Virus record (IMG/VR): IMGVR_UViG_2531839178_000014
From: a virus
Taxonomy: Duplodnaviria > Heunggongvirae > Uroviricota > Caudoviricetes
Reading direction: 5' to 3' (one strand)
DNA: 12,772 bases
Below are positions 1 to 12,772 of the stretch, one piece after another; the first letter of the stretch is position 1; each line of letters opens with the position of its first letter. Both the position numbers and the translations under genes were made by a program. The notes below the pieces were generated by a model. The model searched no databases, had not been told where the DNA came from, and saw only the letters and a program-made list of their open reading frames with translations.

Positions 1-155
1 AGCAGAGCGTTCTGGCAACGTCGCTGACACGGTCGCCCCCGGTGCAGCATCAGCATGGCAGTCAGTCTGCGGGCATAATTTTTATCGTGTGTTTTATGGA
101 TGGCTTTCTGCATCAGGCGTCGTTCGTCACGGGAAATTGGTGCTATGATCGGCAT
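1..155 (-). CDS. IS630-family-like transposase, N-terminal part (MPIIAPISRDERRLMQKAIHKTHDKNYARRLTAMLMLHRG...); ORF runs off the window start
   Basis: Minus-strand ATG at 155-153 with an open frame to position 1. The N-terminus resembles Tc1/IS630-type transposases as I recall them. The element end abuts a CTAG site inside IS2 at 256/257. Confidence 0.5.
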   Translation of the reverse strand, partial: MPIIAPISRDERRLMQKAIHKTHDKNYARRLTAMLMLHRGRPCQRRCQNAL

Positions 156-256
156 TGCTCAGTCCGGTTGGTGATTTGTTTTGATTTGGCGATTGTTCAG
201 ATCGCACAATCCGGGCTAAGTTCCCTCAAAGTGATCTACTATTCCGCGCAGCTATT

Positions 257-332
257 TAGTCTAAAAACTAGTATTAAGACTATCACTTATTTAAGTGATA
301 CTGGTTGTCTGGAGATTCAGGGGGCCAGTCTA
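257..332 (-). mobile_element. IS2 left-end fragment (IRL plus about 76 bp), internally truncated by the IS630-like insertion
   Basis: Reverse complement is identical to the first 76 bp of the IS2 copy starting at 12339 (TAGACTGGCCCCCTGAATCTCCAGACAACCAG...TTTTTAGACTA). Identity is lost exactly after GACTA. Confidence 0.8.
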
Positions 333-349
333 GGGGATAAATTAGCCAT
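333..349 (-). pseudogene. 5' stub of a gene (SD GGAGGAA, ATG at 349, codons M-A-N-L-S-P) severed by the IS2 end
   Basis: Minus strand reads ...cagcGGAGGAAttaacTGATGgctaatttatcccc, then the IS2 IRL begins. The start overlaps the native stop of the upstream 113-aa ORF (TGATG). Confidence 0.4.
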
Positions 350-415
350 CAGTTAATTCCTCCGCTGATATATGAGGTGTACTGGCAATAGCGGACACTA
401 CCATTTGTTCTTTTT

Positions 416-1234
416 TTAAGCAGCCATCTGATGATATTTTTCCCTGAAGGCTGCCGGGGAGATATTCCCCAGACGAGAGTGACGACGCTGACGATTGTAG
501 AAAATCTCAATGTATTCCCGTATTACTGAGATGGCTTCATCCCGGTTATTAAAACGATAGTGGCTCAGGCTCTCATTTTTCAGCGTTCCCCAGAAGCTTT
601 CCATCGGAGCGTTGTCGTAACTGTTACCTTTACGCGACATTGATGTTTTCAGACCAAACTGCTCCTGTATGACCCGGTAATCGTATGCGCAGTACTGTGA
701 ACCTCGATCAGAGTGGTGGATTAGCCCGGCAGGTGGGCGCTGGCTCCTGAGCGCCATAAACAGGGCTTTACCTGTCAGCTCTTTTGTCATGCGCTCTCCC
801 ATGGCGTAGCCGACAATTTCGCACGTATAAACATCTTTGATGCCAGCGAGGTACAACCATCCCTCCTGTGTGGCAACATACGTCAGGTCCGCCACCCAGA
901 CCTGATTTGGTGCTGTAGGAGCGAACGTCTGGTTCAGCAGATTTGGCGCAACTGGCAGATTGTGGTTCGGGTTCGTAGTCGCTCTGAACTTGCGTTTCTG
1001 CTTACAGCGTAGCCTTAGCTCCTTACGAAGACGTGCCAGTCGGTCACGACCAACGATGATGCCATTCTCTGCCAGCTCCGTCTGGAGCCGCCGGGTTCCA
1101 TATGTTTCGCGAGTGCGGATATGTGCCACCTTAATCTCCAGTTTTAGCCGCTCATCACTTTGTTTTCTGTCTGAGGGTTCATGCTGTACCCAGTTGTAAT
1201 AACCGCTCCTGGATACACCAAATACCTGACACAT
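416..1234 (-). CDS. IS3-family transposase OrfB segment (DDE integrase-like catalytic region), IS911-like
   Basis: 272-aa ORF with typical IS3-family OrfB features (ADLTYV..., HSDRGSQY..., YDNAPMESFWGTLK...). The orfB frame upstream of the Met is closed by a TGA at 1283-1285. Confidence 0.85.
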   Translation of the reverse strand: MCQVFGVSRSGYYNWVQHEPSDRKQSDERLKLEIKVAHIRTRETYGTRRLQTELAENGIIVGRDRLARLRKELRLRCKQKRKFRATTNPNHNLPVAPNLLNQTFAPTAPNQVWVADLTYVATQEGWLYLAGIKDVYTCEIVGYAMGERMTKELTGKALFMALRSQRPPAGLIHHSDRGSQYCAYDYRVIQEQFGLKTSMSRKGNSYDNAPMESFWGTLKNESLSHYRFNNRDEAISVIREYIEIFYNRQRRHSRLGNISPAAFREKYHQMAA

Positions 1235-1310
1235 CGCTTCAATGGGAAATTGTTGTCGCCATTGTTCGATTAACGCGTATTTTCAGCGACTCCTGTGCAA
1301 AATACGCTGT

Positions 1311-2531
1311 TGTAGATTCAATCTGTCAATGCAACACCCCTTTCAATTATCTCTTTCGGTGTTTTGAACTTCAGTGTCTTTCTCGGTCTGTTGTTTAGCT
1401 GAGCAGCAACCAGATCTAGTTCATGTTGAGTATATTGGGCAAGACATGTCTTTTTAGGAAAGTACTGCCGAATTAGCCCATTTGTGTTCTCATTTGTTCC
1501 CCGCTGCCAAGGACTCTGAGGATCGCAGAAGTAAACTTTAACGCCGGTGCTGACAGTAAATTCTAGATGTCTGGCCAGTTCCATTCCTCTGTCCCATGTC
1601 AGTGATTTTCTGAGTTCTGACGGTAAACTCAGGAATTTGTCGGTAAGAGCCTGATTTACTGAGACAGAATCTTTGCCCCTGAGTCTAAGGATGATCGTAT
1701 AACGTGATTTTCGGTCTACAAGTGTGGCTATATGAGAGTTTTTTGTACCTGAGACTAAATCGCCCTCCCAATGCCCCAGAGAGCGTCTGTTATCGATATT
1801 TCGGGAACGTTCGTGAATTGGTGTTCCGTTCACTATGTTAATCGTACCTCTTTCGCCTTTGCGGGTATGACGCCTGCCATGGCGAAGGCTATGCGACCGT
1901 CGCAGATGCTGTATATTCAGGTGGTGTAGCGCTTCACGGCTACGAAAGTACAGCGTTTTATAAATTGTCTCAGGTGATATTCGCAGCGTTTTTTGACGTG
2001 GTTTTGTTCGCCTTAACCATCCTGATATTTGCTCTGGAGACCATTTCATCTCCAGCTTTTCCAGAACAAGCTTTCGCAATGGTAAATTTTGATCCAGTAA
2101 GCACGGTTTTGGCCTTTTCGCCATTCTGTTGGCTCGGTTATTAGCATCAACAGCTTTGTAATAGCGTCTGCCCCGATTACGCTGAACTTCACGTGAGATC
2201 GTCGAAGGACTGCGATTCAGCGCAGTAGCTATCGCACGAATGCTCATTTTGGCTGACAAACCAGCTCGTATCTCCTCGCGCTCAGACAGTGTCAGGTGAG
2301 CTACAGCCCGCTTACGCTCATGGGGTTTTATGCCGCCAGTATCCCTTAACATAGTGAAGATCGTTCCGGGTTTTGAACCCAGGATATTCGCTATTTCACT
2401 GAAGCCTGTTCCGTTCTTCCATAGTTCAAAAACAGAGGCTTTTTCCTCTGCTGTAAATGTTCGTCTCATTCAAAAAACCTCCGCGACCCCATGTTTTCAC
2501 ATAACTGTTGCGTTGACCAATTGAATCTACA
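1311..2531 (-). mobile_element. IS30, copy 1 (1221 bp), inserted in the IS911-like element; 2-bp direct repeat GT
   Basis: Terminal inverted repeats TGTAGATTCAAT... at both ends. GT at 1309-1310 and 2532-2533. Encodes a 383-aa transposase. Confidence 0.9.
1318..2469 (-). CDS. insI: IS30 transposase
   Basis: 383-aa ORF, identical to the second copy at 10006-11157. Sequence and length match the IS30 transposase as I recall it; N-terminal HTH and C-terminal DDE region. Confidence 0.9.
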   Translation of the reverse strand: MRRTFTAEEKASVFELWKNGTGFSEIANILGSKPGTIFTMLRDTGGIKPHERKRAVAHLTLSEREEIRAGLSAKMSIRAIATALNRSPSTISREVQRNRGRRYYKAVDANNRANRMAKRPKPCLLDQNLPLRKLVLEKLEMKWSPEQISGWLRRTKPRQKTLRISPETIYKTLYFRSREALHHLNIQHLRRSHSLRHGRRHTRKGERGTINIVNGTPIHERSRNIDNRRSLGHWEGDLVSGTKNSHIATLVDRKSRYTIILRLRGKDSVSVNQALTDKFLSLPSELRKSLTWDRGMELARHLEFTVSTGVKVYFCDPQSPWQRGTNENTNGLIRQYFPKKTCLAQYTQHELDLVAAQLNNRPRKTLKFKTPKEIIERGVALTD

Positions 2532-2794
2532 GTTGCTTTTTTTAATATATCTCGCTCAAGGCGAGCTTCATTTAACGCCTTACGCAGTTGCAGAATTTCA
2601 GATTCCAGTTCAGCCACCGTGCGGGAGCCAGGAGTACCGAGCCCTTTTCTGGCGGCGGTAACCCATTGTCCTAAAGTGCCTTCAGGAAGGGATAATCGGG
2701 AAGCGCCTTCACTGATCGAAAGTTGATTTTCAAGAACCGTTCTGACAGCTTCGGCTTTGAACTCTTTAGAGTAACGTTGGGTTTTTCTGCTCAT
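2532..2794 (-). pseudogene. IS911-like OrfA (MSRKTQRYSKEFKAEAV...DILKKAT), interrupted by IS30 just after the A-run; ORF reads on into the IS30 end (to 2426)
   Basis: ATG at 2794 lies 64 bp inside the IS end. HTH and leucine-zipper-like OrfA. The same segment is present in three copies in the window. Confidence 0.8.
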
Positions 2795-2855
2795 TATTAG
2801 CTCCTTCTGATGCCATTCTATTTCAGGAAGGAGTGTCCGTTAAACTCAGGCTACC

Positions 2856-3197
2856 TCAATATTTTTCTTTCGCGTAATCAATAACCTCTTGTAAAAGGTT
2901 GTCTATAATTAACTTTCCGGTTTCAGCCTGGTATTCAGTATGTTGATTAATCCCGATAGCATTCTGGTATGCAGTGCGGATTTCGGTTTCACCCTCCACT
3001 CGGCCCAATTCACCACGGGTAATACCTTCAAAGCGTAACAGCAACTGGTTTATAAACTGTTCTGTTATTTCTATGGTCGTAATGTTCCCATCCAGAAGGT
3101 CAACAATAAGCAGATCACCACCTGTTTTACGTTTTATTCGATGGAGTGCCGCAACAGCTATACGGCGACGATATGTATTAATGGGTTCATGTGTCAT
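2856..3197 (-). CDS. hypothetical protein, 113 aa as found; last about 6 native codons removed by the IS insertion
   Basis: ORF whose stop codon TGA is supplied by the IS terminus. Rejoining the flanks at the ATA duplication restores ...YAKEKYISGGIN*. In frame with the 37-aa ORF upstream. Confidence 0.6.
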   Translation of the reverse strand: MTHEPINTYRRRIAVAALHRIKRKTGGDLLIVDLLDGNITTIEITEQFINQLLLRFEGITRGELGRVEGETEIRTAYQNAIGINQHTEYQAETGKLIIDNLLQEVIDYAKEKY

Positions 3198-3200
3198 TTG

Positions 3201-3314
3201 TTATTTCCCGTATGCTTTACGCAGAAATAAGCAGGCAATATGCATGTAATTTTCACCGTATTGTGCAATAAGGCTGGCGGTCTTGTGTGATGCCATATTC
3301 TTTATAAAAGTCAT
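3201..3314 (-). CDS. small ORF, 37 aa (MTFIKNMASHKTASLIAQYGENYMHIACLFLRKAYGK), strong SD; in frame with the downstream 113-aa ORF across a single TAA
   Basis: AGGAGG sits 7 nt upstream of ATG 3314. Not in the supplied track (below the length cut-off). Checked codon by codon. Confidence 0.4.
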   Translation of the reverse strand: MTFIKNMASHKTASLIAQYGENYMHIACLFLRKAYGK

Positions 3315-3392
3315 AATAAAGCCTCCTGTGGATTAAGGTTGTAACAATCCCCAGCGATAAAACCGCAATAAACGTTCAGGGCATATTTGTTG

Positions 3393-3758
3393 TTATTGCG
3401 CTAATTCTTTTTCAACAGCGGCTTTTGCATATTCACATGCAAAATTCAGAATTTCACTGCCAAGTGTTTTTGTTTCGTTATTACTGGACGTATGTAACAC
3501 CTGTGTTGCATGCAATAAATGATAAACATTTACCGCAAATGAATCAGGCTCCAGACAAATGCCTTCGTAATTATCTTGCTGTGAGGTTGTTTCTGTCATT
3601 GCTCCTGAAGTGCATGCGAGCCTGTTTTTGACAATTCTCTTTCCTCTAATCACTATATCGGCAACATCTATTGCCTTTACAACCTCCGGGAGAAGTTCCT
3701 GGTTTGTATAATCAAAGTTATCAACATGGAGAACAGTTATGTTTTCGAACTTTTTCAT
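3393..3758 (-). CDS. hypothetical protein, 121 aa, no recognisable domain
   Basis: ORF with SD GAGGAA upstream of ATG 3758. Same strand and operon position as the repressor genes. Confidence 0.6.
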   Translation of the reverse strand: MKKFENITVLHVDNFDYTNQELLPEVVKAIDVADIVIRGKRIVKNRLACTSGAMTETTSQQDNYEGICLEPDSFAVNVYHLLHATQVLHTSSNNETKTLGSEILNFACEYAKAAVEKELAQ

Positions 3759-3796
3759 GGCTTCCTCAGCTGACTTATATGTTCTGCTATATAGCG

Positions 3797-3825
3797 AGTC
3801 TCAGAAGTGTTTTCATATTGAGACT
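3797..3825. promoter_or_regulatory. inverted repeat AGTCTCA-N15-TGAGACT between the HTH gene and the 121-aa ORF
   Basis: 7-bp perfect arms seen directly. No T-tract follows, so more likely an operator or RNA structure than a terminator. Confidence 0.3.
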
Positions 3826-3886
3826 GTTTCCGCAATGATTGATAAAAATGTTCGCATGTACCTTGAGGGGCGAAGCGGCGATTATG

Positions 3887-4390
3887 TCACCATTGGTATT
3901 GGTTCTTCCGTAGAAGAGCTTCGCGAGATAAGGAGCAAACTTGTTGAGATGCGTTATGGTGTTGCTGCTCCTCACTTTTTGGTTGCACCGGAGGAGTAAC
4001 CGCGCCAGTTAACAGCCACATCGGATCGCAGCCAAGAATATTTGCCAGTGGGATAAGCATACTGATAGTTGGTTCATACTCTCCGCTCTCCCACTGGATG
4101 ATGACTTCTTCATCGAGATCGAGCAGCCTGGCGAGTTCGGCGGTTGTTAAGCCGCAGGCTTCGCGTTGGGTGCGAAGACGGTTGTTGATTGCAGAATTTT
4201 TGTTCTGTAAAAGCATTGCTGACGATAGCTTTCTGGATATGCTATTTGTCATATCCCATGCCAGTCCTGCGCATGACTCTATATCGCTAGAGAGCGTAGC
4301 ATCTGGTGTTGCTTTTGCTATTAGTGTAATGAGGCTGCCGAGGTTTTTCAGTTCTTCGAGACAGTCAAGAGTTGTAGCTTTATTGATCAT
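3887..4390 (-). CDS. XRE-family helix-turn-helix DNA-binding protein (167 aa) with an extra N-terminal segment
   Basis: Central HTH_XRE-like segment INNRLRTQREACGLTTAELARLLDLDEEVIIQWESGEYEPTISMLIPLANILG. The 5' end is uncertain (internal Met codons at 4252 and 4216 lack an SD). Confidence 0.65.
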   Translation of the reverse strand: MINKATTLDCLEELKNLGSLITLIAKATPDATLSSDIESCAGLAWDMTNSISRKLSSAMLLQNKNSAINNRLRTQREACGLTTAELARLLDLDEEVIIQWESGEYEPTISMLIPLANILGCDPMWLLTGAVTPPVQPKSEEQQHHNASQQVCSLSREALLRKNQYQW

Positions 4391-4421
4391 GAGATGATAC
4401 CCCAGTTACGAACTTTGTTTC

Positions 4422-4450
4422 ATGGTAACTAAGGCATCAAAGCATGGCAA
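4422..4450 (-). promoter_or_regulatory. candidate sigma70 promoter for the HTH gene (-35 TTGCCA, 17-bp spacer, -10 TACCAT on minus strand)
   Basis: Hexamers read directly from the sequence; a TTGATACTTTGG motif copy lies just upstream at 4458-4469. Confidence 0.3.
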
Positions 4451-4486
4451 GTAGTTTTTGATACTTTGGTTTCTTTTTGTATCTGG

Positions 4487-5143
4487 TCAGAAAATATCCC
4501 ACCTGGCATCAACCACAACACCTACTATTTCGCAATCATTGTCCATTTCTATGATGGGATATTGTGGATTAAGGGGCTTTAGAAACGCCTTCCCCATTTC
4601 AGAAATATATTTTTTGAATGTTGCTTCATTGGTGGATTTTTTTCTGGCGATGACGTAACACCCTGAAAAAACTTCTTTATCTGGATTGACAAGGATCGAC
4701 ATTCCTTCAGGAAATGTTATTCCTATAGGCGAAGTCATTGAGTCTCCGTGTACTTCCAGCCAGAAGCCCCTCTCACCAGCGTATTTTACAGAATGCCTCC
4801 AATTATCCTGATCATACATGTTGTAGTCATCACCTGCAGTTGCGAATAATCCTGCCTGAACCCAGTTAATTACAGGGTAAGAGTGTGCTGTGTCTCTCTG
4901 GGGACAGCTCTTAACATTATTTTCCCAATACTTACCTTTTTCATCTCCGTTCTGAAGCCACTGCGGTGAACACTGCAGTGCCGCTGCGACTTTAAAAAGC
5001 GTGTCACCGTTGAAACTTTTTGTAAGACCTTGCTCGGCTTTACTGATTGCAACTCTGGTGACCCCAGCTTTTTTAGCCAACGCATCTTGCGTTAACCCAG
5101 CTTTTTGTCGTGCGTTGATGAGGCGTTCACCTAAAGATTTCAT
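4487..5143 (-). CDS. CI-like phage repressor: N-terminal XRE HTH plus C-terminal LexA/S24 peptidase domain (218 aa)
   Basis: HTH LGERLINARQKAGLTQDALAKKAGVTRVAISKAEQG; Ala-Gly site (VQAGLFATAG); GDSM serine motif and a downstream Lys (ARKK). SD AAGGAG precedes ATG 5143. Confidence 0.85.
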   Translation of the reverse strand: MKSLGERLINARQKAGLTQDALAKKAGVTRVAISKAEQGLTKSFNGDTLFKVAAALQCSPQWLQNGDEKGKYWENNVKSCPQRDTAHSYPVINWVQAGLFATAGDDYNMYDQDNWRHSVKYAGERGFWLEVHGDSMTSPIGITFPEGMSILVNPDKEVFSGCYVIARKKSTNEATFKKYISEMGKAFLKPLNPQYPIIEMDNDCEIVGVVVDARWDIF

Positions 5144-5189
5144 TTTTCTTCTCCTTTCATGGCTGCTGATACTAAAGTAACAGAATGTC

Positions 5190-5218
5190 TTGATACTTTG
5201 GATTCTCATGTTTAACAT
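5190..5218 (+). promoter_or_regulatory. candidate rightward promoter (-35 TTGATA, 17 bp, -10 TAACAT) in the repressor/Cro-like intergenic region
   Basis: Hexamers read from sequence; overlaps the second TTGATACTTTGG motif copy. Confidence 0.3.
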
Positions 5219-5254
5219 TCTTGGATAACAGAGTATCCGGTGTGAGGCTAAAGA

Positions 5255-5464
5255 ATGACCCTTTATGAAATATTAAAAACTCAATTTAAAACCAATGCCG
5301 CTATTGGCCGCAGGTTCCCAAAGAAAGGAAAGCCTCGTGGTAGTCAGGGAGTTGGAAAGTGGAAAACGCGGGGCGTTCCGGAGGATGTTGCCATTCTCTG
5401 CCATCTGGATCCGAACATTCCATATACACATCCAAGCTTAGCGCACACAGAGGATGAGAAGTGA
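5255..5464 (+). CDS. small basic protein (69 aa) divergent from the repressor; positional Cro analogue
   Basis: ORF with SD GTGAGG 7 nt upstream. Assigned by position only; no clear HTH recognised. Confidence 0.45.
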   Translation: MTLYEILKTQFKTNAAIGRRFPKKGKPRGSQGVGKWKTRGVPEDVAILCHLDPNIPYTHPSLAHTEDEK

Positions 5465-5504
5465 TGGTGGTGATATGAGCGAAAAAATAACTATTAAATA
5501 CGAT

Positions 5505-5527
5505 GGGGCAACAATTTCGATTGCCCC
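5505..5527. terminator. GC-rich hairpin (GGGGCAA-N9-TTGCCCC) between convergent genes, followed on the minus strand by a T-rich stretch
   Basis: 7-bp perfect stem seen directly. It lies 8 nt beyond the native stop of the 97-aa minus-strand gene once the IS is removed in silico. Confidence 0.35.
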
Positions 5528-5597
5528 AATCACATTAGGCTGTGTCCCTTAATCATCTGAGCTATAGTAACTGTCTGTTTACACAACATATTGAACT

Positions 5598-6047
5598 ATG
5601 GCTCGCTACGACCTTCCCGATGAGGCATGGACCATCATCAAGCCCCTGTTACCTCCTGAACCCGCCACACCACGGGCCGGACGCCCATGGGCTGAGCACC
5701 GTAAAATCATCAATGGCATGTTCTGGGTGTTATGTTCCGGTGCACCATGGCGCGATTTACCCGAACGATATGGGTCATGGAAAACTGTTTATAACCGCTT
5801 TAACCGATGGTCAAAGTCAGGCGTGATTAATATTATTTTCAACAGGTTGCTTTCGCTACTTGATGCAAACGGCTTTATTGACTGGTCTGCCACCGCGCTG
5901 GATGGCAGTAATATCCGGGCGCTGAAATGTGCCGCCGGTGCTCAAAAAAACATCCCGATATCGACGGAGATAATGGGCTGGGTCGCTCTCGCGGCGGTTT
6001 TGGCACCAAAATCCATCTGGCAACAGACGGAAGTGGCCTCCCGTTAA
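5598..6047 (+). CDS. IS5-family transposase ORF1 (N-terminal DNA-binding part)
   Basis: 149-aa ORF MARYDLPDEAWTIIKPLLP...WRDLPERYGSWKTVYNRFNRW. Confidence 0.8.
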   Translation: MARYDLPDEAWTIIKPLLPPEPATPRAGRPWAEHRKIINGMFWVLCSGAPWRDLPERYGSWKTVYNRFNRWSKSGVINIIFNRLLSLLDANGFIDWSATALDGSNIRALKCAAGAQKNIPISTEIMGWVALAAVLAPKSIWQQTEVASR

Positions 6048-6442
6048 ATATCGTGCTAAGCCCCGGACAAGCTCATGAAAGCCAGTTCGCGCAACGACTT
6101 CTGGACGGGATTGGCGTTCAGCGTCAGAACGGCAGCATGAAACGCCGTGGACATGCGGTACTGGCTGATAAAGCGTATTCAGGGCGCGCATTGCGCAACG
6201 AGCTGAAAAATAACGGTATAAAGGCAGTAATCCCCCGAAAGTCAAATGAGAAAATGGCATCGGATGGACGTGCACAGCTTGATCGTGATGCGTACTGCAA
6301 TCGTAATGTCGTTGAACGGTGCTTTGGGCGGCTGAAAGAATATCGCCGCATCGCCACGCGTTACGACAAAACGGCGAGAAATTACCTGGCGATGGTGAAA
6401 CTGGGCTGCATCCGACTCTTTTATCAACGCTTACGTAATTAA
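5927..6442 (+). CDS. IS5-family transposase ORF2 (DDE catalytic part), -1 frame relative to ORF1
   Basis: 171-aa ORF ...GGFGTKIHLATDGSGLPLNIVLSPGQAHESQ...; overlaps ORF1 by about 120 nt. Confidence 0.8.
   Translation: MCRRCSKKHPDIDGDNGLGRSRGGFGTKIHLATDGSGLPLNIVLSPGQAHESQFAQRLLDGIGVQRQNGSMKRRGHAVLADKAYSGRALRNELKNNGIKAVIPRKSNEKMASDGRAQLDRDAYCNRNVVERCFGRLKEYRRIATRYDKTARNYLAMVKLGCIRLFYQRLRN
5944..5950 (+). promoter_or_regulatory. A7 slippery run (A AAA AAC in the ORF1 frame), candidate programmed -1 frameshift site fusing ORF1 and ORF2
   Basis: The frames were checked: ORF1 reads GAQKNIP and ORF2 reads CSKKHPDID over the same A-run. Confidence 0.5.
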
Positions 6443-6452
6443 GGGACACAGC

Positions 6453-6746
6453 CTAGCGTTCGCTGAGAAGTTGTTGGTAAGCCTTAAAGGATGCGAACTG
6501 CATTCTACCTTCGGCATTGATTCCAATGCCTTCGCTTGTGCACCAGGCGATGAACTCGGCTGTATCCGCTTCAGCTTTAATAACTCGTTGCCCGCTTCTT
6601 TCGACACGCTTAATCAATTTTTCAGCGTCGTGTTTCCACTCGGTGTAACTGTCGGAGAGCACATCAGCATCAGTAAAAATATTTTTGAGCTCATGATACT
6701 GAATCGCATCGCGAAACCAGAATAAACCAACGGCCTGAACTTTCAT
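6453..6746 (-). CDS. hypothetical protein, 97 aa, strong SD; native TAA stop overlaps the IS5-family insertion point
   Basis: AAGGAGG sits 6 nt upstream of ATG 6746. Protein-like composition. The plus-strand ORF 6471-6725 is the antisense reading. Confidence 0.65.
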   Translation of the reverse strand: MKVQAVGLFWFRDAIQYHELKNIFTDADVLSDSYTEWKHDAEKLIKRVERSGQRVIKAEADTAEFIAWCTSEGIGINAEGRMQFASFKAYQQLLSER

Positions 6747-6865
6747 GTCGAACCTCCTTTGGTTCTTTTGTTTATAGGGATCAAAAGGATAACTGAAGGA
6801 TGGTTCGGCACCAACAAGTACGAATGTGCGGAATCTTAAAAGAATTTATCCGTAAGGAGATGGCA

Positions 6866-7573
6866 GTGAACACCGCAATTTTTAACGACAAAGTATCCAT
6901 GACCAGCGTTGAAATCGCAGAGCTGGTTGGAAGTCAACACGGCAATGTCAGAATATCAATAGAGCGTCTGGCAAAACGCGGGGTGATTCAACTTCCTGCA
7001 ATGCAAAAAGTTGAGAACGAACAATCATTTAGCCAAAACAAATTCACAAACGCATATATTTTCGAAGGCGAACAAGGCAAACGCGACAGCATCATTGTCG
7101 TCGCACAACTTTGCCCGGAATTCACTGCCCGCCTGGTAGATCGTTGGCGCGAACTGGAAGAGCAGGTGCGCAAACCAATGAGCGAAATCGAAATGGTTGC
7201 CGCGATGGCTCTTGAAGCCGTTCGCCAGCAGAAACGGATCACTCAGGTGGAAGAAAAAGTCAGCCATGTTGCCGAAACAGTTGAGCAAATCAAAAAGGGT
7301 ACCATTCGTGAGGGCTATGCCGGATATCGCCAGCTGAAAGCAAAAACCGGTATGTCAGATGCGAAATGTCGCACGCTTGTAAATGCATACAACATCCCGA
7401 CAGACACTCATGAATTTTTGACGCCAGATGGATTACTGGCACGTCGTGAAATTGTTGCTGTGGAACCGTTTCTGAAGGCGTTTCATCACATGATGTGTGG
7501 TGCCGTTCAGCGTGGTACCCGCTGGTATCACCCGAGAATGGGCCTGTTTCAGGCTACTGGCTGGCAGGTGTGA
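6866..7573 (+). CDS. Rha-like phage regulatory protein (putative antirepressor family)
   Basis: N-terminal ...SMTSVEIAELVGSQHGNVRISIERL... resembles the Rha N-terminus of the second copy. Start chosen at GTG 6866 (AAGGAG 6 nt upstream); the longer track ORF from 6800 has no SD. Confidence 0.65.
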   Translation: MNTAIFNDKVSMTSVEIAELVGSQHGNVRISIERLAKRGVIQLPAMQKVENEQSFSQNKFTNAYIFEGEQGKRDSIIVVAQLCPEFTARLVDRWRELEEQVRKPMSEIEMVAAMALEAVRQQKRITQVEEKVSHVAETVEQIKKGTIREGYAGYRQLKAKTGMSDAKCRTLVNAYNIPTDTHEFLTPDGLLARREIVAVEPFLKAFHHMMCGAVQRGTRWYHPRMGLFQATGWQV

Positions 7574-7592
7574 CGATGTTTACGGGTAATTT

Positions 7593-7769
7593 ATGCAAGT
7601 CCTCAATCGCTGGTTCCGTGATGGCAGAGGGCGCCGCGTCCACGTTATACGCTGGGAGCCTGAAACACAGCGGGTTATTTATCTGCGTGATGGTTATCCA
7701 TATGAATGTTTCAGCCCGTTGTGGTTGTTCAGGCGTGATTTTGTGGAGTGTGAAGCGCCGCCGGAATGA
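7593..7769 (+). CDS. small ORF, 58 aa (MQVLNRWFRDGRGRRVHVIRWEPETQRVIYLRDGYPYECFSPLWLFRRDFVECEAPPE)
   Basis: ATG to TGA open frame in the gap between the Rha gene and the two-gene module; no good SD. Confidence 0.25.
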   Translation: MQVLNRWFRDGRGRRVHVIRWEPETQRVIYLRDGYPYECFSPLWLFRRDFVECEAPPE

Positions 7770-7790
7770 CGGCACGGTATATACGAAAAA

Positions 7791-8150
7791 TTACGCCGCC
7801 TTGCCCAGCGTAAAATCAAAGTGGATGTCGTCATACGGGAATGACGTTCCGCGCTCGCTTTTTTCCAGTAAACCGTTGCTGATGAGTGCGGTCACGTCAG
7901 TATGCACGCTTTTTACATCACGTCCAACCAGGGCTGCAATTTTTCGGATGGGCATTTCTCCGGCACCAGTCATTGCCATCAGAATGTCCATGCGTTTTGG
8001 TGTCAGTACCTTATGCATCATTTGCCAGTCAGGAAATGAAATAACGTTTTCTCTGGTTGCTTTTGCTCCGGTAGCTGCTTCCTGGAACGCAGACAGCACA
8101 TCAGCCGTGAAATTATCCATTGACTCGATTCGGATTGTTACGGTTCTCAT
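7791..8150 (-). CDS. HTH DNA-binding protein (119 aa), antitoxin-like second gene of a coupled pair
   Basis: ATG 8150 lies 1 nt after the upstream gene's stop (TGAcATG). C-terminal HTH-like segment MPIRKIAALVGRDVKSVHTDVTALISNGLLEK. Confidence 0.6.
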   Translation of the reverse strand: MRTVTIRIESMDNFTADVLSAFQEAATGAKATRENVISFPDWQMMHKVLTPKRMDILMAMTGAGEMPIRKIAALVGRDVKSVHTDVTALISNGLLEKSERGTSFPYDDIHFDFTLGKAA

Positions 8151-8151
8151 G

Positions 8152-8439
8152 TCAGATACCTCTGCGGATGGATTCAACGTCAGCCAGAAAATCAGCGAGC
8201 AGTTGTTCAATGGTGACAAAGCTGGTGCTGACTTCCTGACTACCAATGTGTTTGTGATCGCCTTTACCCCGTTCGTTGTCGTAACGCATCACACACATGC
8301 CATCAACGACATAAGCCATGCTGTATTTGTAGTTGTGCTGGCTACCCAATACAGCAGGCTCCACTTCCCATATGCGGATTCGTATGTATTCAGATTCACC
8401 GAGATGACGGATGAACTGTTTATACAGTCTGGATGGCAT
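8152..8439 (-). CDS. small protein (95 aa), toxin-like first gene of a coupled pair; family not recognised
   Basis: SD GAGGAAG sits 6 nt upstream of ATG 8439. Stop is translationally coupled to the next gene. Confidence 0.55.
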   Translation of the reverse strand: MPSRLYKQFIRHLGESEYIRIRIWEVEPAVLGSQHNYKYSMAYVVDGMCVMRYDNERGKGDHKHIGSQEVSTSFVTIEQLLADFLADVESIRRGI

Positions 8440-8457
8440 TTAAAGCTTCCTCTGGTT

Positions 8458-8481
8458 CTTGTTGTAAACAATAACAACAAG
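8458..8481. promoter_or_regulatory. inverted repeat CTTGTTGT-N8-ACAACAAG in the promoter region of the two-gene module (candidate operator)
   Basis: 8-bp perfect arms seen directly, about 20 bp upstream of the start codon at 8439. Confidence 0.4.
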
Positions 8482-8793
8482 GCTTCGCGTTGTCCACAGC
8501 TACAACATTTTGATATTGATTCTGCAAGTCCGGGACGTTACACTGTCTCTGCACCTTATAAAGCGGGTGCCGGGATTGGCGTCCTGAAATTCAATATAGA
8601 GCATAACCGCGCTCATGCGGTTTTTTCGTGTCATGAGCATTGCTACGCCCAAATTATGGTGGGGCGTGCAGGGGCATCGCAAGATGCGCCGGGTTCTATG
8701 TTGACCGGTTACGCCAACCCTGTACGTCTCACCACCTCTGTGATTGGCGTCCCATGTGGTGAGTTCTTTGAATTCAACATAGGGGCTGTCACC

Positions 8794-9357
8794 ATGACTA
8801 CACTCCCAACCCTCTCTCAACCTGAAATTGCCATCGTTGATGGTCAGGCTGTTACTTCATCTCTGGCTGTTGCTGACTTCTTCTCTAAACGTCATGACGA
8901 TGTTCTGAAAAAGATCCGCATTTTGGATTGTTCTCCAGAGTTTTGTGCCCGCAATTTTGCGGAGACATCAATTTTGGTACACCAGCCCAACGGCGGTACT
9001 CGCAAACTTCCTTGCTACCACATCACCCGCGACGGCTTCGCATTCCTGGCAATGGGCTTCACTGGCAAACGTGCTGCCCGCTTCAAAGAGGCATACATCA
9101 ACGCCTTTAACCTGATGGAGAAGAGTTTATCAGGTGCCGATGCGTCTGATATGTCAGCTGTCGCACGAAACGCCAGAGGCGTATACCTGCATTTGCGTGA
9201 AATCCATCAAATCTGGATAAGCCAGCTTTATCCAATGCTTAAGGCCGTTGAGTCTCCGCTGGCTGGCAAACTGTACGACCGTGTAGGTGATGCTGTTTTT
9301 GGTGCTGCACTTGTTGATTCCAGACTGAATGGTTCTGACAAGGAGGGGCGCCCATGA
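8794..9357 (+). CDS. Rha-family phage regulatory protein (187 aa)
   Basis: MTTLPTLSQPEIAIVDGQAVTSSLAVADFFSKRHDDVLKKIR...FKEAYINAFNLMEK matches the Rha family pattern. It is only the 3' part of the 620-aa track ORF. Confidence 0.8.
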   Translation: MTTLPTLSQPEIAIVDGQAVTSSLAVADFFSKRHDDVLKKIRILDCSPEFCARNFAETSILVHQPNGGTRKLPCYHITRDGFAFLAMGFTGKRAARFKEAYINAFNLMEKSLSGADASDMSAVARNARGVYLHLREIHQIWISQLYPMLKAVESPLAGKLYDRVGDAVFGAALVDSRLNGSDKEGRP

Positions 9358-9587
9358 TCCGCCACATCGTTAATTCCCTGTATCACCGATACAACCGTTG
9401 CCCCCGAGTGGGGCAGTGGTTCACCACCAGCAACGGCCACGTTCTGCGGGTTTGCCTGGTCAATACAGAAAGCCAGAAGGTTGTCTGCCAGGTTCAGGGA
9501 CGTACTCATACCCTGAGTTATCCGCTGGTGGCGTTTCAGTCCGGAAAAATGTTTAAACGCCTGGGAGGTGGCTATGCGTCCGTCTGA
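9354..9587 (+). CDS. hypothetical small protein, 77 aa, start overlaps the Rha stop (ATGA)
   Basis: Strong SD AAGGAGGGG upstream of ATG 9354. Confidence 0.5.
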   Translation: MIRHIVNSLYHRYNRCPRVGQWFTTSNGHVLRVCLVNTESQKVVCQVQGRTHTLSYPLVAFQSGKMFKRLGGGYASV

Positions 9588-9617
9588 TCTTCTGCTCGAT
9601 TTTGGACATCCGGTTGC
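9574..9617 (+). pseudogene. 5' stub of a gene (MRPSDLLLDFGHPVA...) cut by the IS911-like left end
   Basis: SD GGGAGG plus ATG 9574; the open frame runs into the IS terminus at 9618. Confidence 0.4.
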
Positions 9618-9943
9618 TGAGGTAGCCTGAGTTTAACGGACACTCCTTCCTGAAATAGAATGGCATCAGAAGGAGCTAATAATGAGCAGAAAAACCCAAC
9701 GTTACTCTAAAGAGTTCAAAGCCGAAGCTGTCAGAACGGTTCTTGAAAATCAACTTTCGATCAGTGAAGGCGCTTCCCGATTATCCCTTCCTGAAGGCAC
9801 TTTAGGACAATGGGTTACCGCCGCCAGAAAAGGGCTCGGTACTCCTGGCTCCCGCACGGTGGCTGAACTGGAATCTGAAATTCTGCAACTGCGTAAGGCG
9901 TTAAATGAAGCTCGCCTTGAGCGAGATATATTAAAAAAGCAAC
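9618..9943 (+). mobile_element. IS911-like 5' segment (IRL plus OrfA up to the A-run), 326 bp, abutting the IS30 IRL
   Basis: Near-identical to the reverse complement of 2532-2858 except that the A-run is A6 rather than A7. OrfA (9682-9948) therefore reads ...DILKKQL* into IS30. Confidence 0.85.
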
Positions 9944-11164
9944 TGTAGATTCAATTGGTCAACGCAACAGTTATGTGAAAACATGGGGTCGCGGAGGTTT
10001 TTTGAATGAGACGAACATTTACAGCAGAGGAAAAAGCCTCTGTTTTTGAACTATGGAAGAACGGAACAGGCTTCAGTGAAATAGCGAATATCCTGGGTTC
10101 AAAACCCGGAACGATCTTCACTATGTTAAGGGATACTGGCGGCATAAAACCCCATGAGCGTAAGCGGGCTGTAGCTCACCTGACACTGTCTGAGCGCGAG
10201 GAGATACGAGCTGGTTTGTCAGCCAAAATGAGCATTCGTGCGATAGCTACTGCGCTGAATCGCAGTCCTTCGACGATCTCACGTGAAGTTCAGCGTAATC
10301 GGGGCAGACGCTATTACAAAGCTGTTGATGCTAATAACCGAGCCAACAGAATGGCGAAAAGGCCAAAACCGTGCTTACTGGATCAAAATTTACCATTGCG
10401 AAAGCTTGTTCTGGAAAAGCTGGAGATGAAATGGTCTCCAGAGCAAATATCAGGATGGTTAAGGCGAACAAAACCACGTCAAAAAACGCTGCGAATATCA
10501 CCTGAGACAATTTATAAAACGCTGTACTTTCGTAGCCGTGAAGCGCTACACCACCTGAATATACAGCATCTGCGACGGTCGCATAGCCTTCGCCATGGCA
10601 GGCGTCATACCCGCAAAGGCGAAAGAGGTACGATTAACATAGTGAACGGAACACCAATTCACGAACGTTCCCGAAATATCGATAACAGACGCTCTCTGGG
10701 GCATTGGGAGGGCGATTTAGTCTCAGGTACAAAAAACTCTCATATAGCCACACTTGTAGACCGAAAATCACGTTATACGATCATCCTTAGACTCAGGGGC
10801 AAAGATTCTGTCTCAGTAAATCAGGCTCTTACCGACAAATTCCTGAGTTTACCGTCAGAACTCAGAAAATCACTGACATGGGACAGAGGAATGGAACTGG
10901 CCAGACATCTAGAATTTACTGTCAGCACCGGCGTTAAAGTTTACTTCTGCGATCCTCAGAGTCCTTGGCAGCGGGGAACAAATGAGAACACAAATGGGCT
11001 AATTCGGCAGTACTTTCCTAAAAAGACATGTCTTGCCCAATATACTCAACATGAACTAGATCTGGTTGCTGCTCAGCTAAACAACAGACCGAGAAAGACA
11101 CTGAAGTTCAAAACACCGAAAGAGATAATTGAAAGGGGTGTTGCATTGACAGATTGAATCTACA
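9944..11164 (+). mobile_element. IS30, copy 2 (1221 bp)
   Basis: Same terminal repeats as copy 1. Flanked by AC on the left and GT on the right, which are reverse complements rather than a direct repeat. Confidence 0.9.
10006..11157 (+). CDS. insI: IS30 transposase
   Basis: 383-aa ORF identical in protein sequence to 1318-2469. Confidence 0.9.
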   Translation: MRRTFTAEEKASVFELWKNGTGFSEIANILGSKPGTIFTMLRDTGGIKPHERKRAVAHLTLSEREEIRAGLSAKMSIRAIATALNRSPSTISREVQRNRGRRYYKAVDANNRANRMAKRPKPCLLDQNLPLRKLVLEKLEMKWSPEQISGWLRRTKPRQKTLRISPETIYKTLYFRSREALHHLNIQHLRRSHSLRHGRRHTRKGERGTINIVNGTPIHERSRNIDNRRSLGHWEGDLVSGTKNSHIATLVDRKSRYTIILRLRGKDSVSVNQALTDKFLSLPSELRKSLTWDRGMELARHLEFTVSTGVKVYFCDPQSPWQRGTNENTNGLIRQYFPKKTCLAQYTQHELDLVAAQLNNRPRKTLKFKTPKEIIERGVALTD

Positions 11165-11491
11165 GTTGCTTTTTTTAATATATCTCGCTCAAGGCGAGCT
11201 TCATTTAACGCCTTACGCAGTTGCAGAATTTCAGATTCCAGTTCAGCCACCGTGCGGGAACCAGGAGTACCGAGCCCTTTTCTGGCGGCGGTAACCCATT
11301 GTCCTAAAGTGCCTTCAGGAAGGGATAATCGGGAAGCGCCTTCACTGATCGAAAGTTGATTTTCAAGAACCGTTCTGACAGCTTCGGCTTTGAACTCTTT
11401 AGAGTAACGTTGGGTTTTTCTGCTCATTATTAGCTCCTTCTGATGCCATTCTATTTCAGGAAGGAGTGTCCGTTAAACTCAGGCTACCTCA
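11165..11491 (-). mobile_element. IS911-like 5' segment (IRL plus OrfA up to the A-run), 327 bp, inverted, abutting the IS30 IRR
   Basis: Matches 2532-2858 (A7) with one substitution (A at 11260 versus G at 2627). OrfA from ATG 11427 reads into the IS30 end (track ORF 11077-11427). Confidence 0.85.
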
Positions 11492-11627
11492 AAGGACCGA
11501 ACAAACGAAACAGCAATGAGACCGTTGCGAAAAGCGACAATAGACAAATTCCCTGAATATATCGACCCGCGCCTGCGTAATTACCGCTCACGCTATGGCG
11601 CTATCAGTAATGACTGAGGAATTTACC

Positions 11628-11795
11628 ATGAGAGGACTTGCATACAATCCCGGCATTCTTCCGGCAGAAATGATTATTCGCCAACGCGTAAAGCCAATGC
11701 CATCGAGAGAGGAATTGCTTAAGAGAAATTCTTTTCCGTCAGTGAATCAAAACAAATATCTGAATGCTATGTGGCGCAAAGGAGGCAAACAGTGA
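11628..11795 (+). CDS. hypothetical small protein (about 55 aa from ATG 11628; longer track ORF from 11595)
   Basis: GAGGA sits 7 nt upstream of ATG 11628; in frame with upstream ATGs at 11595 and 11610. Confidence 0.4.
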
Positions 11796-12338
11796 GCGAA
11801 ATTGACTATCAGGCACTGCGTGAAAAGGCAGAGAAAGCAACGTGGGGTGTGTGGTCGCTCGAATATGGAGAGGAGAAACTTGATGCTGATGATGCGCTAA
11901 TTCACCGTGAAGTTGTTGGATATCTTCCTATTTGCAGAATTGAAGGAGCGCATCCTGAAAGCGGTTTCGATGAAGATTTCCAAATGGAACAGCAGGCCAA
12001 TGCTGAATTCATCGCCGCAGCCAATCCGGCTACTGTGCTGACACTGCTGAGCGAGCTGGAAACAGCAAAAAAGCGCATAGCAGAACTGGAAGCCAAACCT
12101 GTAAGCCAGACTTACAAGTTGAATGAGATGTCGGGCAACTCTCCGGTAATTCCGGATGGTTGGATAAGCTGTAGTGATCGAATGCCTGAAAAGGGCCAGA
12201 ACGTACTTATTTCGGTGAATTTCGATAGCTCTCTGGTTGAACCGCTAATATGCTCCGCACGCTATACCGGAGGTACATTCCGGCGTGGAGATGTAACGGT
12301 TAAGCCAGGTAATGGTATTGAACAGGCAACCCACTGGA
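11792..12338 (+). pseudogene. Ea22-like prophage protein, C-terminus cut by IS2 (frame continues into the IS2 IRL to 12388)
   Basis: SD AAGGAGG sits 6 nt upstream of GTG 11792. N-terminal [20 protein letters not shown] resembles Ead/Ea22-like prophage proteins as I recall them. The IS2 IRL starts at 12339. Confidence 0.55.
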
Positions 12339-12529
12339 TAGACTGGCCCCCTGAATCTCCAGACAACCAGTATCACTTAAATAAGTGATAGTCTTAATAC
12401 TAGTTTTTAGACTAGTCATTGGAGTACAGATGATTGATGTCTTAGGGCCGGAGAAACGCAGACGGCGTACCACACAGGAAAAGATCGCAATTGTTCAGCA
12501 GAGCTTTGAACCGGGGATGACGGTCTCCC
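12339..12529 (+). mobile_element. insC: IS2 left end with the first 33 codons of InsC ([33 protein letters not shown]), interrupted by another IS
   Basis: IRL TAGACTGGCCCCCTGAATCTCC at 12339; InsC ATG at 12430. Identity to IS2 is lost at about 12530. Confidence 0.85.
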
Positions 12530-12772
12530 TGAACCGCCCCGGGTTTCCTGGAGAGTGTTTTATCTGTGAACTCAGGCTGCCAGATCATCGTTTCCGATGG
12601 AAGCATAATAAGCTTTTTCTGCTTCTGCCGGAGGAGTATGGCCCAGCCTTTCCAGCAATCGTCGATTGTTATACCAGTCCACCCACGTGAGTGTGGCCAG
12701 TTCCACTTCTGCACGGTTTTTCCAGCTCTTACGGTGTATTACCTCCGCTTTGTAAAGACCATTGATGCTCTC
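12530..12772 (-). mobile_element. IS3-family element (IS629/IS1203-like) right end with the OrfB C-terminus; continues beyond the window
   Basis: Terminus TGAACCGCCCCGGG. Minus-strand frame 12572-12772 encodes ...[66 protein letters not shown]. Confidence 0.7.

Follow-up and report, generated by a model that had tools for sequence, protein, structure and literature searches.

How did a pair of nested insertion sequences (ISs) come to interrupt a prophage gene, and was the pair built there or did it arrive ready-made? The question is raised by a 12,772-nt stretch of DNA from a Caudoviricetes virus record (IMG/VR IMGVR_UViG_2531839178_000014; hereafter the window), which is the whole of one contig of a draft Shigella assembly, so that single-nucleotide polymorphisms (SNPs) in it are unreliable. 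Between positions 373 and 2858, the window carries an IS30 inserted into an IS3-family element that we assign to IS600, and together they interrupt the end of a lambdoid-prophage gene of unknown function. From the anatomy of the insertion, its empty site and its relatives in other genomes, we consider it very likely that an IS600 residing in the prophage gene was struck by IS30 at a recurrent hot spot and that the product has since been inherited within Shigella. Nested IS600::IS30 structures are of a known kind and are already annotated in many public genomes.

Anatomy of the nested insertion

The inner element can be read directly from the sequence. It occupies 1311 to 2531 on the minus strand, is exactly 1221 bp long, has 26-bp terminal inverted repeats (beginning TGTAGATTCAAT) and contains a single intact open reading frame (ORF) for a 383-amino-acid (aa) transposase (1318-2469, minus strand). 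It is flanked by a 2-bp duplication, GT at 1309-1310 and again at 2532-2533, which is AC on the coding strand of the outer element. Length, repeats, transposase and duplication are those of IS30, and 3 of the 1221 positions differ from IS30A of Escherichia coli K-12.

The outer element extends from 373 to 2858, also on the minus strand, between imperfect inverted repeats of about 27 bp that start with TGAGGT, and is bordered by ATA at 370-372 and 2859-2861. Its right part (373-1308, minus strand) begins with the right terminal inverted repeat at 373 and contains a 272-aa orfB reading frame (416-1234, minus strand). Its left part (2534-2858, minus strand) contains orfA up to an A AAA AAG heptamer, and its left terminal inverted repeat ends at 2858. 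Without IS30 and one GT, the outer element measures 1263 bp, compared with 1264 bp in relatives, and its restored sequence encodes a 100-aa OrfA that ends just past the heptamer and is followed by orfB. Intact relatives encode a 385-aa OrfAB. Because IS30 separates orfA from orfB in the window, production of the OrfAB transposase is predicted to be abolished; at the junction there is instead a chimeric 122-aa ORF (2426-2794, minus strand) made of 88 aa of OrfA and 34 residues read from IS30.

A preliminary description, made from the letters of the window, had proposed two nested simple insertions with both target duplications preserved. Its coordinates for the two elements are exact to the base, and the sequence together with the empty site described below bears out the ATA and GT duplications. 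Matching 3-bp and 2-bp flanks would be expected by chance in about 1/1024 of cases; the empty site provides the decisive test.

One further difference lies within the right part. The run of T at 1280-1283 is T4, one base shorter than the T5 found in all related copies, and the shorter run would truncate the IS600 OrfAB at 100 aa. We set aside the idea of a doubly dead IS600, disabled by this 1-nt deletion in addition to IS30. Since the change is one of homopolymer length in a draft assembly and the relatives have the full run, it may be a sequencing error.

Identity of the outer element

The outer element is 99.6-99.8% identical to copies named IS600 by the Prokaryotic Genome Annotation Pipeline (PGAP), and its right part is 99.6% identical to annotated IS600. 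It has the length of IS600 (about 1264 bp) and imperfect terminal inverted repeats starting with TG; its orfA and orfB are linked through a -1 frameshift at A AAA AAG, and OrfB contains a DDE (rve) domain. PF01527 and PF00665 are on record for IS600 products, and Pfam rve domains are on record for a product identical to that of the 272-aa ORF. The target duplication is of 3 bp, ATA in the window and CAT, CGC, AAC or TGC at other copies. By sequence comparison, the outer element is therefore IS600, a member of the IS3 group of the IS3 family; as an IS3-family element, IS600 transposes by a copy-out/paste-in route. The preliminary description had labeled the element IS911-like. This label has to be replaced, as a blastn comparison of K-12 IS911 with IS600 gave a single 24-nt match at the frameshift site, and this limited nucleotide similarity rules out IS911 as the outer element.

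Target gene and empty site

When 332-372 is joined to 2862-3300 with one ATA kept, the product aligns without gaps over 480 nt to two uninterrupted E. coli lambdoid prophages, at 99.4% and 99.0% identity. In those prophages, a hypothetical 119-aa coding sequence (CDS) and a 71-aa CDS share one base in a TGATG stop/start overlap. The comparison with empty-site alleles, which had been suggested as a check, in this way confirms the proposed ancestral overlap and the loss of the last 6 codons of the interrupted gene. In the window, the gene survives as a 113-aa ORF (2856-3197, minus strand) that lacks exactly those codons (ISGGIN), and its TGA stop is supplied by the first three bases of IS600. 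The severed codons and the original stop lie on the other side of the insertion at 349-369 (minus strand).

The 119-aa protein is a full-length match to phrog_1737 and the 71-aa protein matches phrog_340, both families of unknown function; a Pfam search with the 119-aa protein found nothing. The 71-aa gene is represented at 332-349 (minus strand) by its first 6 codons (MANLSP; ATG GCT AAT TTA TCC CCT). Homology to the E. coli prophages stops at 332, where IS debris begins, and in the closest complete genome the rest of the gene lies 2.5 kb further on, past such debris. It had been proposed that the insertion cut the next gene from its operon. This does not hold for the window because the 71-aa gene is reduced to 6 codons at 332, so that no functional gene is left to be separated.

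Distribution and inheritance in Shigella

Four Shigella assemblies of chromosome scale (CP026824.1, CP027027.1, PSSP01000001.1 and UYIS01000022.1) also carry this nested insertion, flanked on either side by TAT when read on the gene strand. The composite is 2486 bp long in the window and 2487 bp in relatives, except in CP026824.1 (2482 bp). In UYIS01000022.1 and in the S. dysenteriae-type contig AAMJ02000025.1, an IS630-family element lies within the IS30 at the equivalent of window position 1417/1418, giving a triple nest of 3642 bp (IS630-family in IS30 in IS600), with a 2-base overlap of the alignments where this element entered. The exact 113-aa product was found in 74 blocks of the collection on 56 contigs, including AKNA01000035.1 of GCA_000268145.1. 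Its NCBI name, "MULTISPECIES: hypothetical protein [Shigella]", is given from Shigella only, and E. coli and S. flexneri usually have the 119-aa form. A scan of viral contigs for the unique junction between flank and IS600 gave no match. Judged from these aligned assemblies, the nested insertion is real, vertically inherited within Shigella and old in this lineage.

Recurrence of IS30 at the frameshift site

The collection contains 5426 complete E. coli genomes, and IS600::IS30 in the orientation seen in the window was found in 997 of them (alignment over at least 80% of the 2486 bp). The preliminary description had asked whether IS30 sits at the identical position in other copies, and in these genomes it does. 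The opposite orientation also occurs, with the IS30 right end beside the orfA arm in 850 genomes and the IS30 left end beside the orfB arm in 624; the uninterrupted IS600 target site occurs in 1638. Overall, between about one fifth and one third of the complete E. coli genomes contain such IS-in-IS composites. In both orientations, IS30 enters IS600 at the same AC dinucleotide, 5 nt past the frameshift heptamer, and in an opposite-orientation example IS30 is likewise at this GT, which is duplicated on its two sides (GT/GT).

IS600 is not the only element struck in this way. In the CP4-6 prophage of K-12, IS911A is interrupted by IS30A at the homologous AC, and the sequence reads ATATTAAAAAAGGCTAC, then IS30, then ACCGCG, with AC duplicated. 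IS30 is known to favor nearly palindromic hot spots, to generate 2-bp duplications and to interrupt IS911 in K-12 (PMC9333248). For an unbiased sample, we collected all exact IS30 left ends, taking one genome per species, and obtained 13 flanks. Eight of these are IS3-family frameshift windows: IS911 was hit in E. coli, in two Kluyvera species and, in the opposite orientation, in E. albertii, IS600 was hit twice, and in Serratia a different IS3-like element carries IS30 directly after ATATTAAAAAAAGCCGC, in the same register as in IS600 and IS911.

The Serratia case is found in Serratia marcescens JADMXW010000041.1, where a third IS3-family element, with the OrfA sequence MSGKRYPEEFKTEAVKQ...RDILKKA, is interrupted by IS30 (802-2022) after GACATATTAAAAAAAGCCGC. 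Its other flank is an IS1 fragment, and no duplication is visible.

Because IS600 and IS911 DNA share only 24 nt at the site, sequence-directed insertion is the simplest account of these hits. Repeated independent insertion is found at one dinucleotide, in either orientation and with a 2-bp duplication. A recurrent IS30 hot spot is indicated since the same AC is used in both orientations, in IS911 and in the Serratia element, and since composites were apparently made in place at two loci (see below). We regard the recurrence of IS30 at the IS3-family frameshift site as well supported by these comparisons of junctions. The two IS600 half-sites match each other at 7 of 14 positions; a hot-spot consensus for IS30, 24 bp long and nearly palindromic, was reportedly published by Olasz et al. 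in 1998.

A wider generalization can be offered only tentatively, and we think it somewhat doubtful. The programmed-frameshift window of IS3-group elements (with insertion directly after ATATTAAAAAARGCNNC) may be a conserved natural hot spot at which IS30 has repeatedly disabled IS600, IS911 and their relatives in Escherichia, Shigella, Kluyvera and Serratia. Each hit would leave an OrfA-like fragment, and the composites could seed arm-IS30-arm hybrids such as that in K-12 KpLE2. A literature search for IS30 targeting of IS600 or IS911 frameshift sites, which did not extend to the 1998 target-specificity paper, found no statement beyond the K-12 IS911::IS30 map (PMC9333248). We do not claim the recurrence as new, as it may already stand in that 1998 paper.

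Formation in place or movement as a unit

The order of events that we propose is as follows. IS600 would have inserted into the last codons of the lambdoid-prophage gene, duplicating ATA. IS30 would then have entered the resident IS600 at AC, 5 nt past the A AAA AAG heptamer, duplicating AC/GT. On this account IS600, IS911 and one or more further IS3-family elements contain a natural hot spot for IS30 at this position, so that composites of IS30 within IS3-family elements arise repeatedly. At the ATA site itself, we infer that IS600 came first and that IS30 followed in situ, rather than the two having come as a ready-made composite.

The alternative is that the 2487-bp IS600::IS30 composite is mobile, its intact IS600 ends being used by OrfAB supplied in trans, so that each copy arrived already assembled. 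The preliminary description had leaned this way, suggesting that the composite may propagate as a unit. The same-orientation composite does occur at four sites with perfect 3-bp duplications that differ from one another (TAT in the window; TGC in PSSP01000001.1; CGC and AAC at two E. coli loci), as unit movement would predict, but two-step formation at each site would fit this pattern too. Formation in place is favored by the occupancy of two of the sites, at which the composite is not the only form found. The composite occupies the CGC site in 33 genomes, and in at least 2 others a single unbroken alignment shows IS600 without IS30 at exactly that position. The AAC site holds uninterrupted IS600 in four genomes, and this copy matches the flank and arms of the composite at 100% identity, a SNP private to the locus included. 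Since uninterrupted IS600 stands at identical sites, the CGC and AAC composites would have been made in place, unless IS30 was precisely excised at both. Three points weigh against our account. No uninterrupted IS600 was seen at the ATA site in the genome sets searched; PSSP01000001.1 has three same-orientation composites within 20 kb that have C232 (left arm) and C47 (IS30) in common, one of which, the TGC copy, is missing from sister strains; and the likeness of the site to known IS30 hot spots comes from our own comparison with the lambda LHS region, not from the published consensus. The shared C232 and C47 would fit local spread of one composite. Across these copies, however, IS30 and the right arm are mosaic: the IS30 of the TGC copy differs from that of its neighbor at two other positions, and at these it matches the one opposite-orientation composite, which lies 1 Mb away; the right arm of the TGC copy is mosaic. 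Haplotype sharing of this kind has to be read with the unreliability of draft-contig SNPs in mind. Transposases of the IS3 family act mainly in cis, as established for IS911, which speaks against mobilization of a composite in trans. Moreover, insertions in both orientations, in IS911 and in a third host element call for independent hits in any case. Unit mobilization is not required by the data and leaves the two orientations and the other host elements unexplained, and we consider it unlikely, for the copy in the window as for the copies elsewhere.

Two other explanations would remove the need for repeated hits or for any insertion at all. Opposite-orientation composites could be derived by inversion of IS30 in place after a single original hit in IS600, and the identical IS600 arms of both orientations in the few E. 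coli copies compared would agree with this. We know of no mechanism that flips a 1221-bp IS between 2-bp repeats, though, and a perfect GT/GT duplication accompanies both orientations, IS911 has likewise been hit in both orientations in different species, and composites appear to have been made in place at two separate loci; inversion is accordingly very improbable. Alternatively, the nested structure at 373-2858 could be a repeat-assembly artefact of the draft genome. The window is a whole draft contig, misjoins are indicated both in its second IS600/IS30 structure and in a sister contig (see below), and its two homopolymer length differences resemble read errors. To this reading we give almost no credence because the same junctions and TAT flanks, around an element of 2482-3642 bp, recur in four chromosome-scale Shigella assemblies, and both junction types are present in about 1000 complete E. 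coli genomes. Insertion of IS600 followed by IS30 at a recurrent target is the explanation that we retain.

A second IS600/IS30 structure in the window

At 9618-11491 the window contains a further structure, made up of an IS600 left arm (9618-9943, plus strand), an IS30 (9944-11164, plus strand) and another IS600 left arm in inverted orientation (11165-11491), the latter with an A7 run and a T at arm position 232. As its flanks are TGC and AAG, it has no target duplication. The A6 run of the first arm (9933-9938) is one base shorter than the A7 of all related copies and, like the T run described above, may be a sequencing error of the draft assembly.

Comparison with PSSP01000001.1 suggests how this structure came about. 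That chromosome is colinear with window positions 1-11164 at 99.92% identity and has an ordinary composite at this place, with TGC/TGC flanks, followed by a phage replication gene. Window positions 11165-12772 match a locus 1 Mb away, at which an opposite-orientation composite (orfB arm, IS30, orfA arm) precedes an Ead/Ea22-DUF551 gene. If the junction in the window were genuine, it would imply a deletion of about 1 Mb, since both IS30 copies point the same way on the PSSP01000001.1 chromosome. In addition, another contig of the same draft assembly, AKNA01000038.1, contains the same Ead/Ea22 region as window positions 11492-12772 with IS30 reversed, and lacks 55 nt between two GTTGC repeats at the IS30/IS600 junction, which suggests repeat-driven misassembly in this genome project. 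The structure at 9618-11491 is probably the result of the assembler crossing between two composites inside IS30. A true recombinant of opposite-orientation composites, for which the differing arms had spoken, was downgraded after the comparison with PSSP01000001.1 and the sister contig. The individual junction sequences of the second structure are genuine, and it follows that the lineage carries IS30 in IS600 in both orientations. The draft contig should accordingly not be relied on across its IS30 copies.

Prophage context

The left end of the window is also composed of mobile-element remains. Next to the truncated 71-aa gene is a 76-nt fragment of another mobile element (257-332, minus strand), which is an exact inverted copy of 12339-12414. 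At a CTAG within this fragment, an IS630-family element has inserted, and its end (1-256, minus strand) runs off the contig; relatives have a 343-aa DDE_3 transposase at the same position. The right-hand 76-nt copy continues into an ORF (12415-12530) that may be IS66-family-like, and at 12530 the end of an IS3-family element interrupts this copy.

The genes adjoining the prophage encode DUF72, MAPEG and methyltransferase domains, and we take them to be yecE, yecN, cmoA and cmoB. The prophage at this yecE-yecN-cmoA locus is riddled with other ISs, and the nested insertion has no evident functional consequence. At 5539-6453 lies an IS5-family-type element of about 915 bp, with inverted repeats of 27 bp and a pair of ORFs (DUF4096; DDE_Tnp_1 in relatives). 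All Shigella relatives carry it, and it is missing from the E. coli prophage relatives, in which its flanks share a 3-bp overlap. In the phage collection, the early region of the prophage has relatives of only 83-92% identity. A gene pair on the minus strand of this region (7791-8439), encoding a TumE toxin and an HVO_A0114 DNA-binding protein, is conserved in E. coli relatives.

Implications

For the window itself, these findings carry little weight, as they describe one dead IS nested in another, at the margin of a decayed prophage. The recurrence has a practical consequence: because the same junction arises independently, an IS600::IS30 junction can be used neither as a marker of common descent nor as evidence of a mobile composite. 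The IS3-group frameshift window as a recurrent IS30 target, for which the aligned junctions give clear evidence, is an only mildly interesting by-product, although work on hot-spot choice by the IS30 transposase would find in it a convenient natural target.

Comparison with known systems

The closest known relatives are IS600::IS30 composites of E. coli (e.g., NZ_CP148275.1, 2331779-2334265), which are 99.7-99.8% identical to the window over 2486 bp. They have IS30 at the same dinucleotide, in the same orientation and with the same AC/GT duplication. They differ from the copy in the window in lying at other chromosomal sites with outer duplications of CGC, AAC or none, in being 2487 bp long and in a few SNPs.

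The preliminary description had placed the same arrangement in a defective K-12 prophage. This parallel is only approximate. K-12 has IS911A::IS30A in CP4-6 (insN / insI1), an arrangement that has been described (PMC9333248) and that resembles the window in the use of the homologous AC 5 nt past the heptamer, in the orientation of IS30 relative to orfA and in the AC duplication. It differs in that the host element is IS911, with 24 nt in common with IS600, and in that IS911A is truncated. K-12 also has a structure in KpLE2 (insO, insI3, insM; NC_000913.3, 4507125-4509801), in which an IS911B left arm is followed by IS30D and a 327-bp IS600 left arm, and IS911B resumes about 120 bp downstream of the hot spot. 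This KpLE2 structure is a real hybrid, with the hot-spot halves of two different IS3-family elements connected by IS30, and the complete genome CP178308.1 contains the same hybrid. It resembles the second structure of the window (9618-11491) in having IS30 between two IS3-family left arms that are cut at the hot-spot position. However, its arms come from two different ISs and it is part of a finished genome, whereas both arms in the window are IS600 and the structure is probably a chimera.

A final parallel lies outside the IS3 family. The lambda LHS hot spot (bp 33244-33498) has been described as a preferred IS30 target (PMC9333248). Like the sites in IS600 and IS911, it has an A-rich run, a G and a few bases before the point of insertion, as can be seen when the sequences that immediately precede IS30 are set side by side: AATAAAAGTGGCGA in lambda LHS, TTAAAAAAAGCAAC in IS600 and TTAAAAAAGGCTAC in IS911. 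This likeness concerns one (left) half-site only, in our own alignment.

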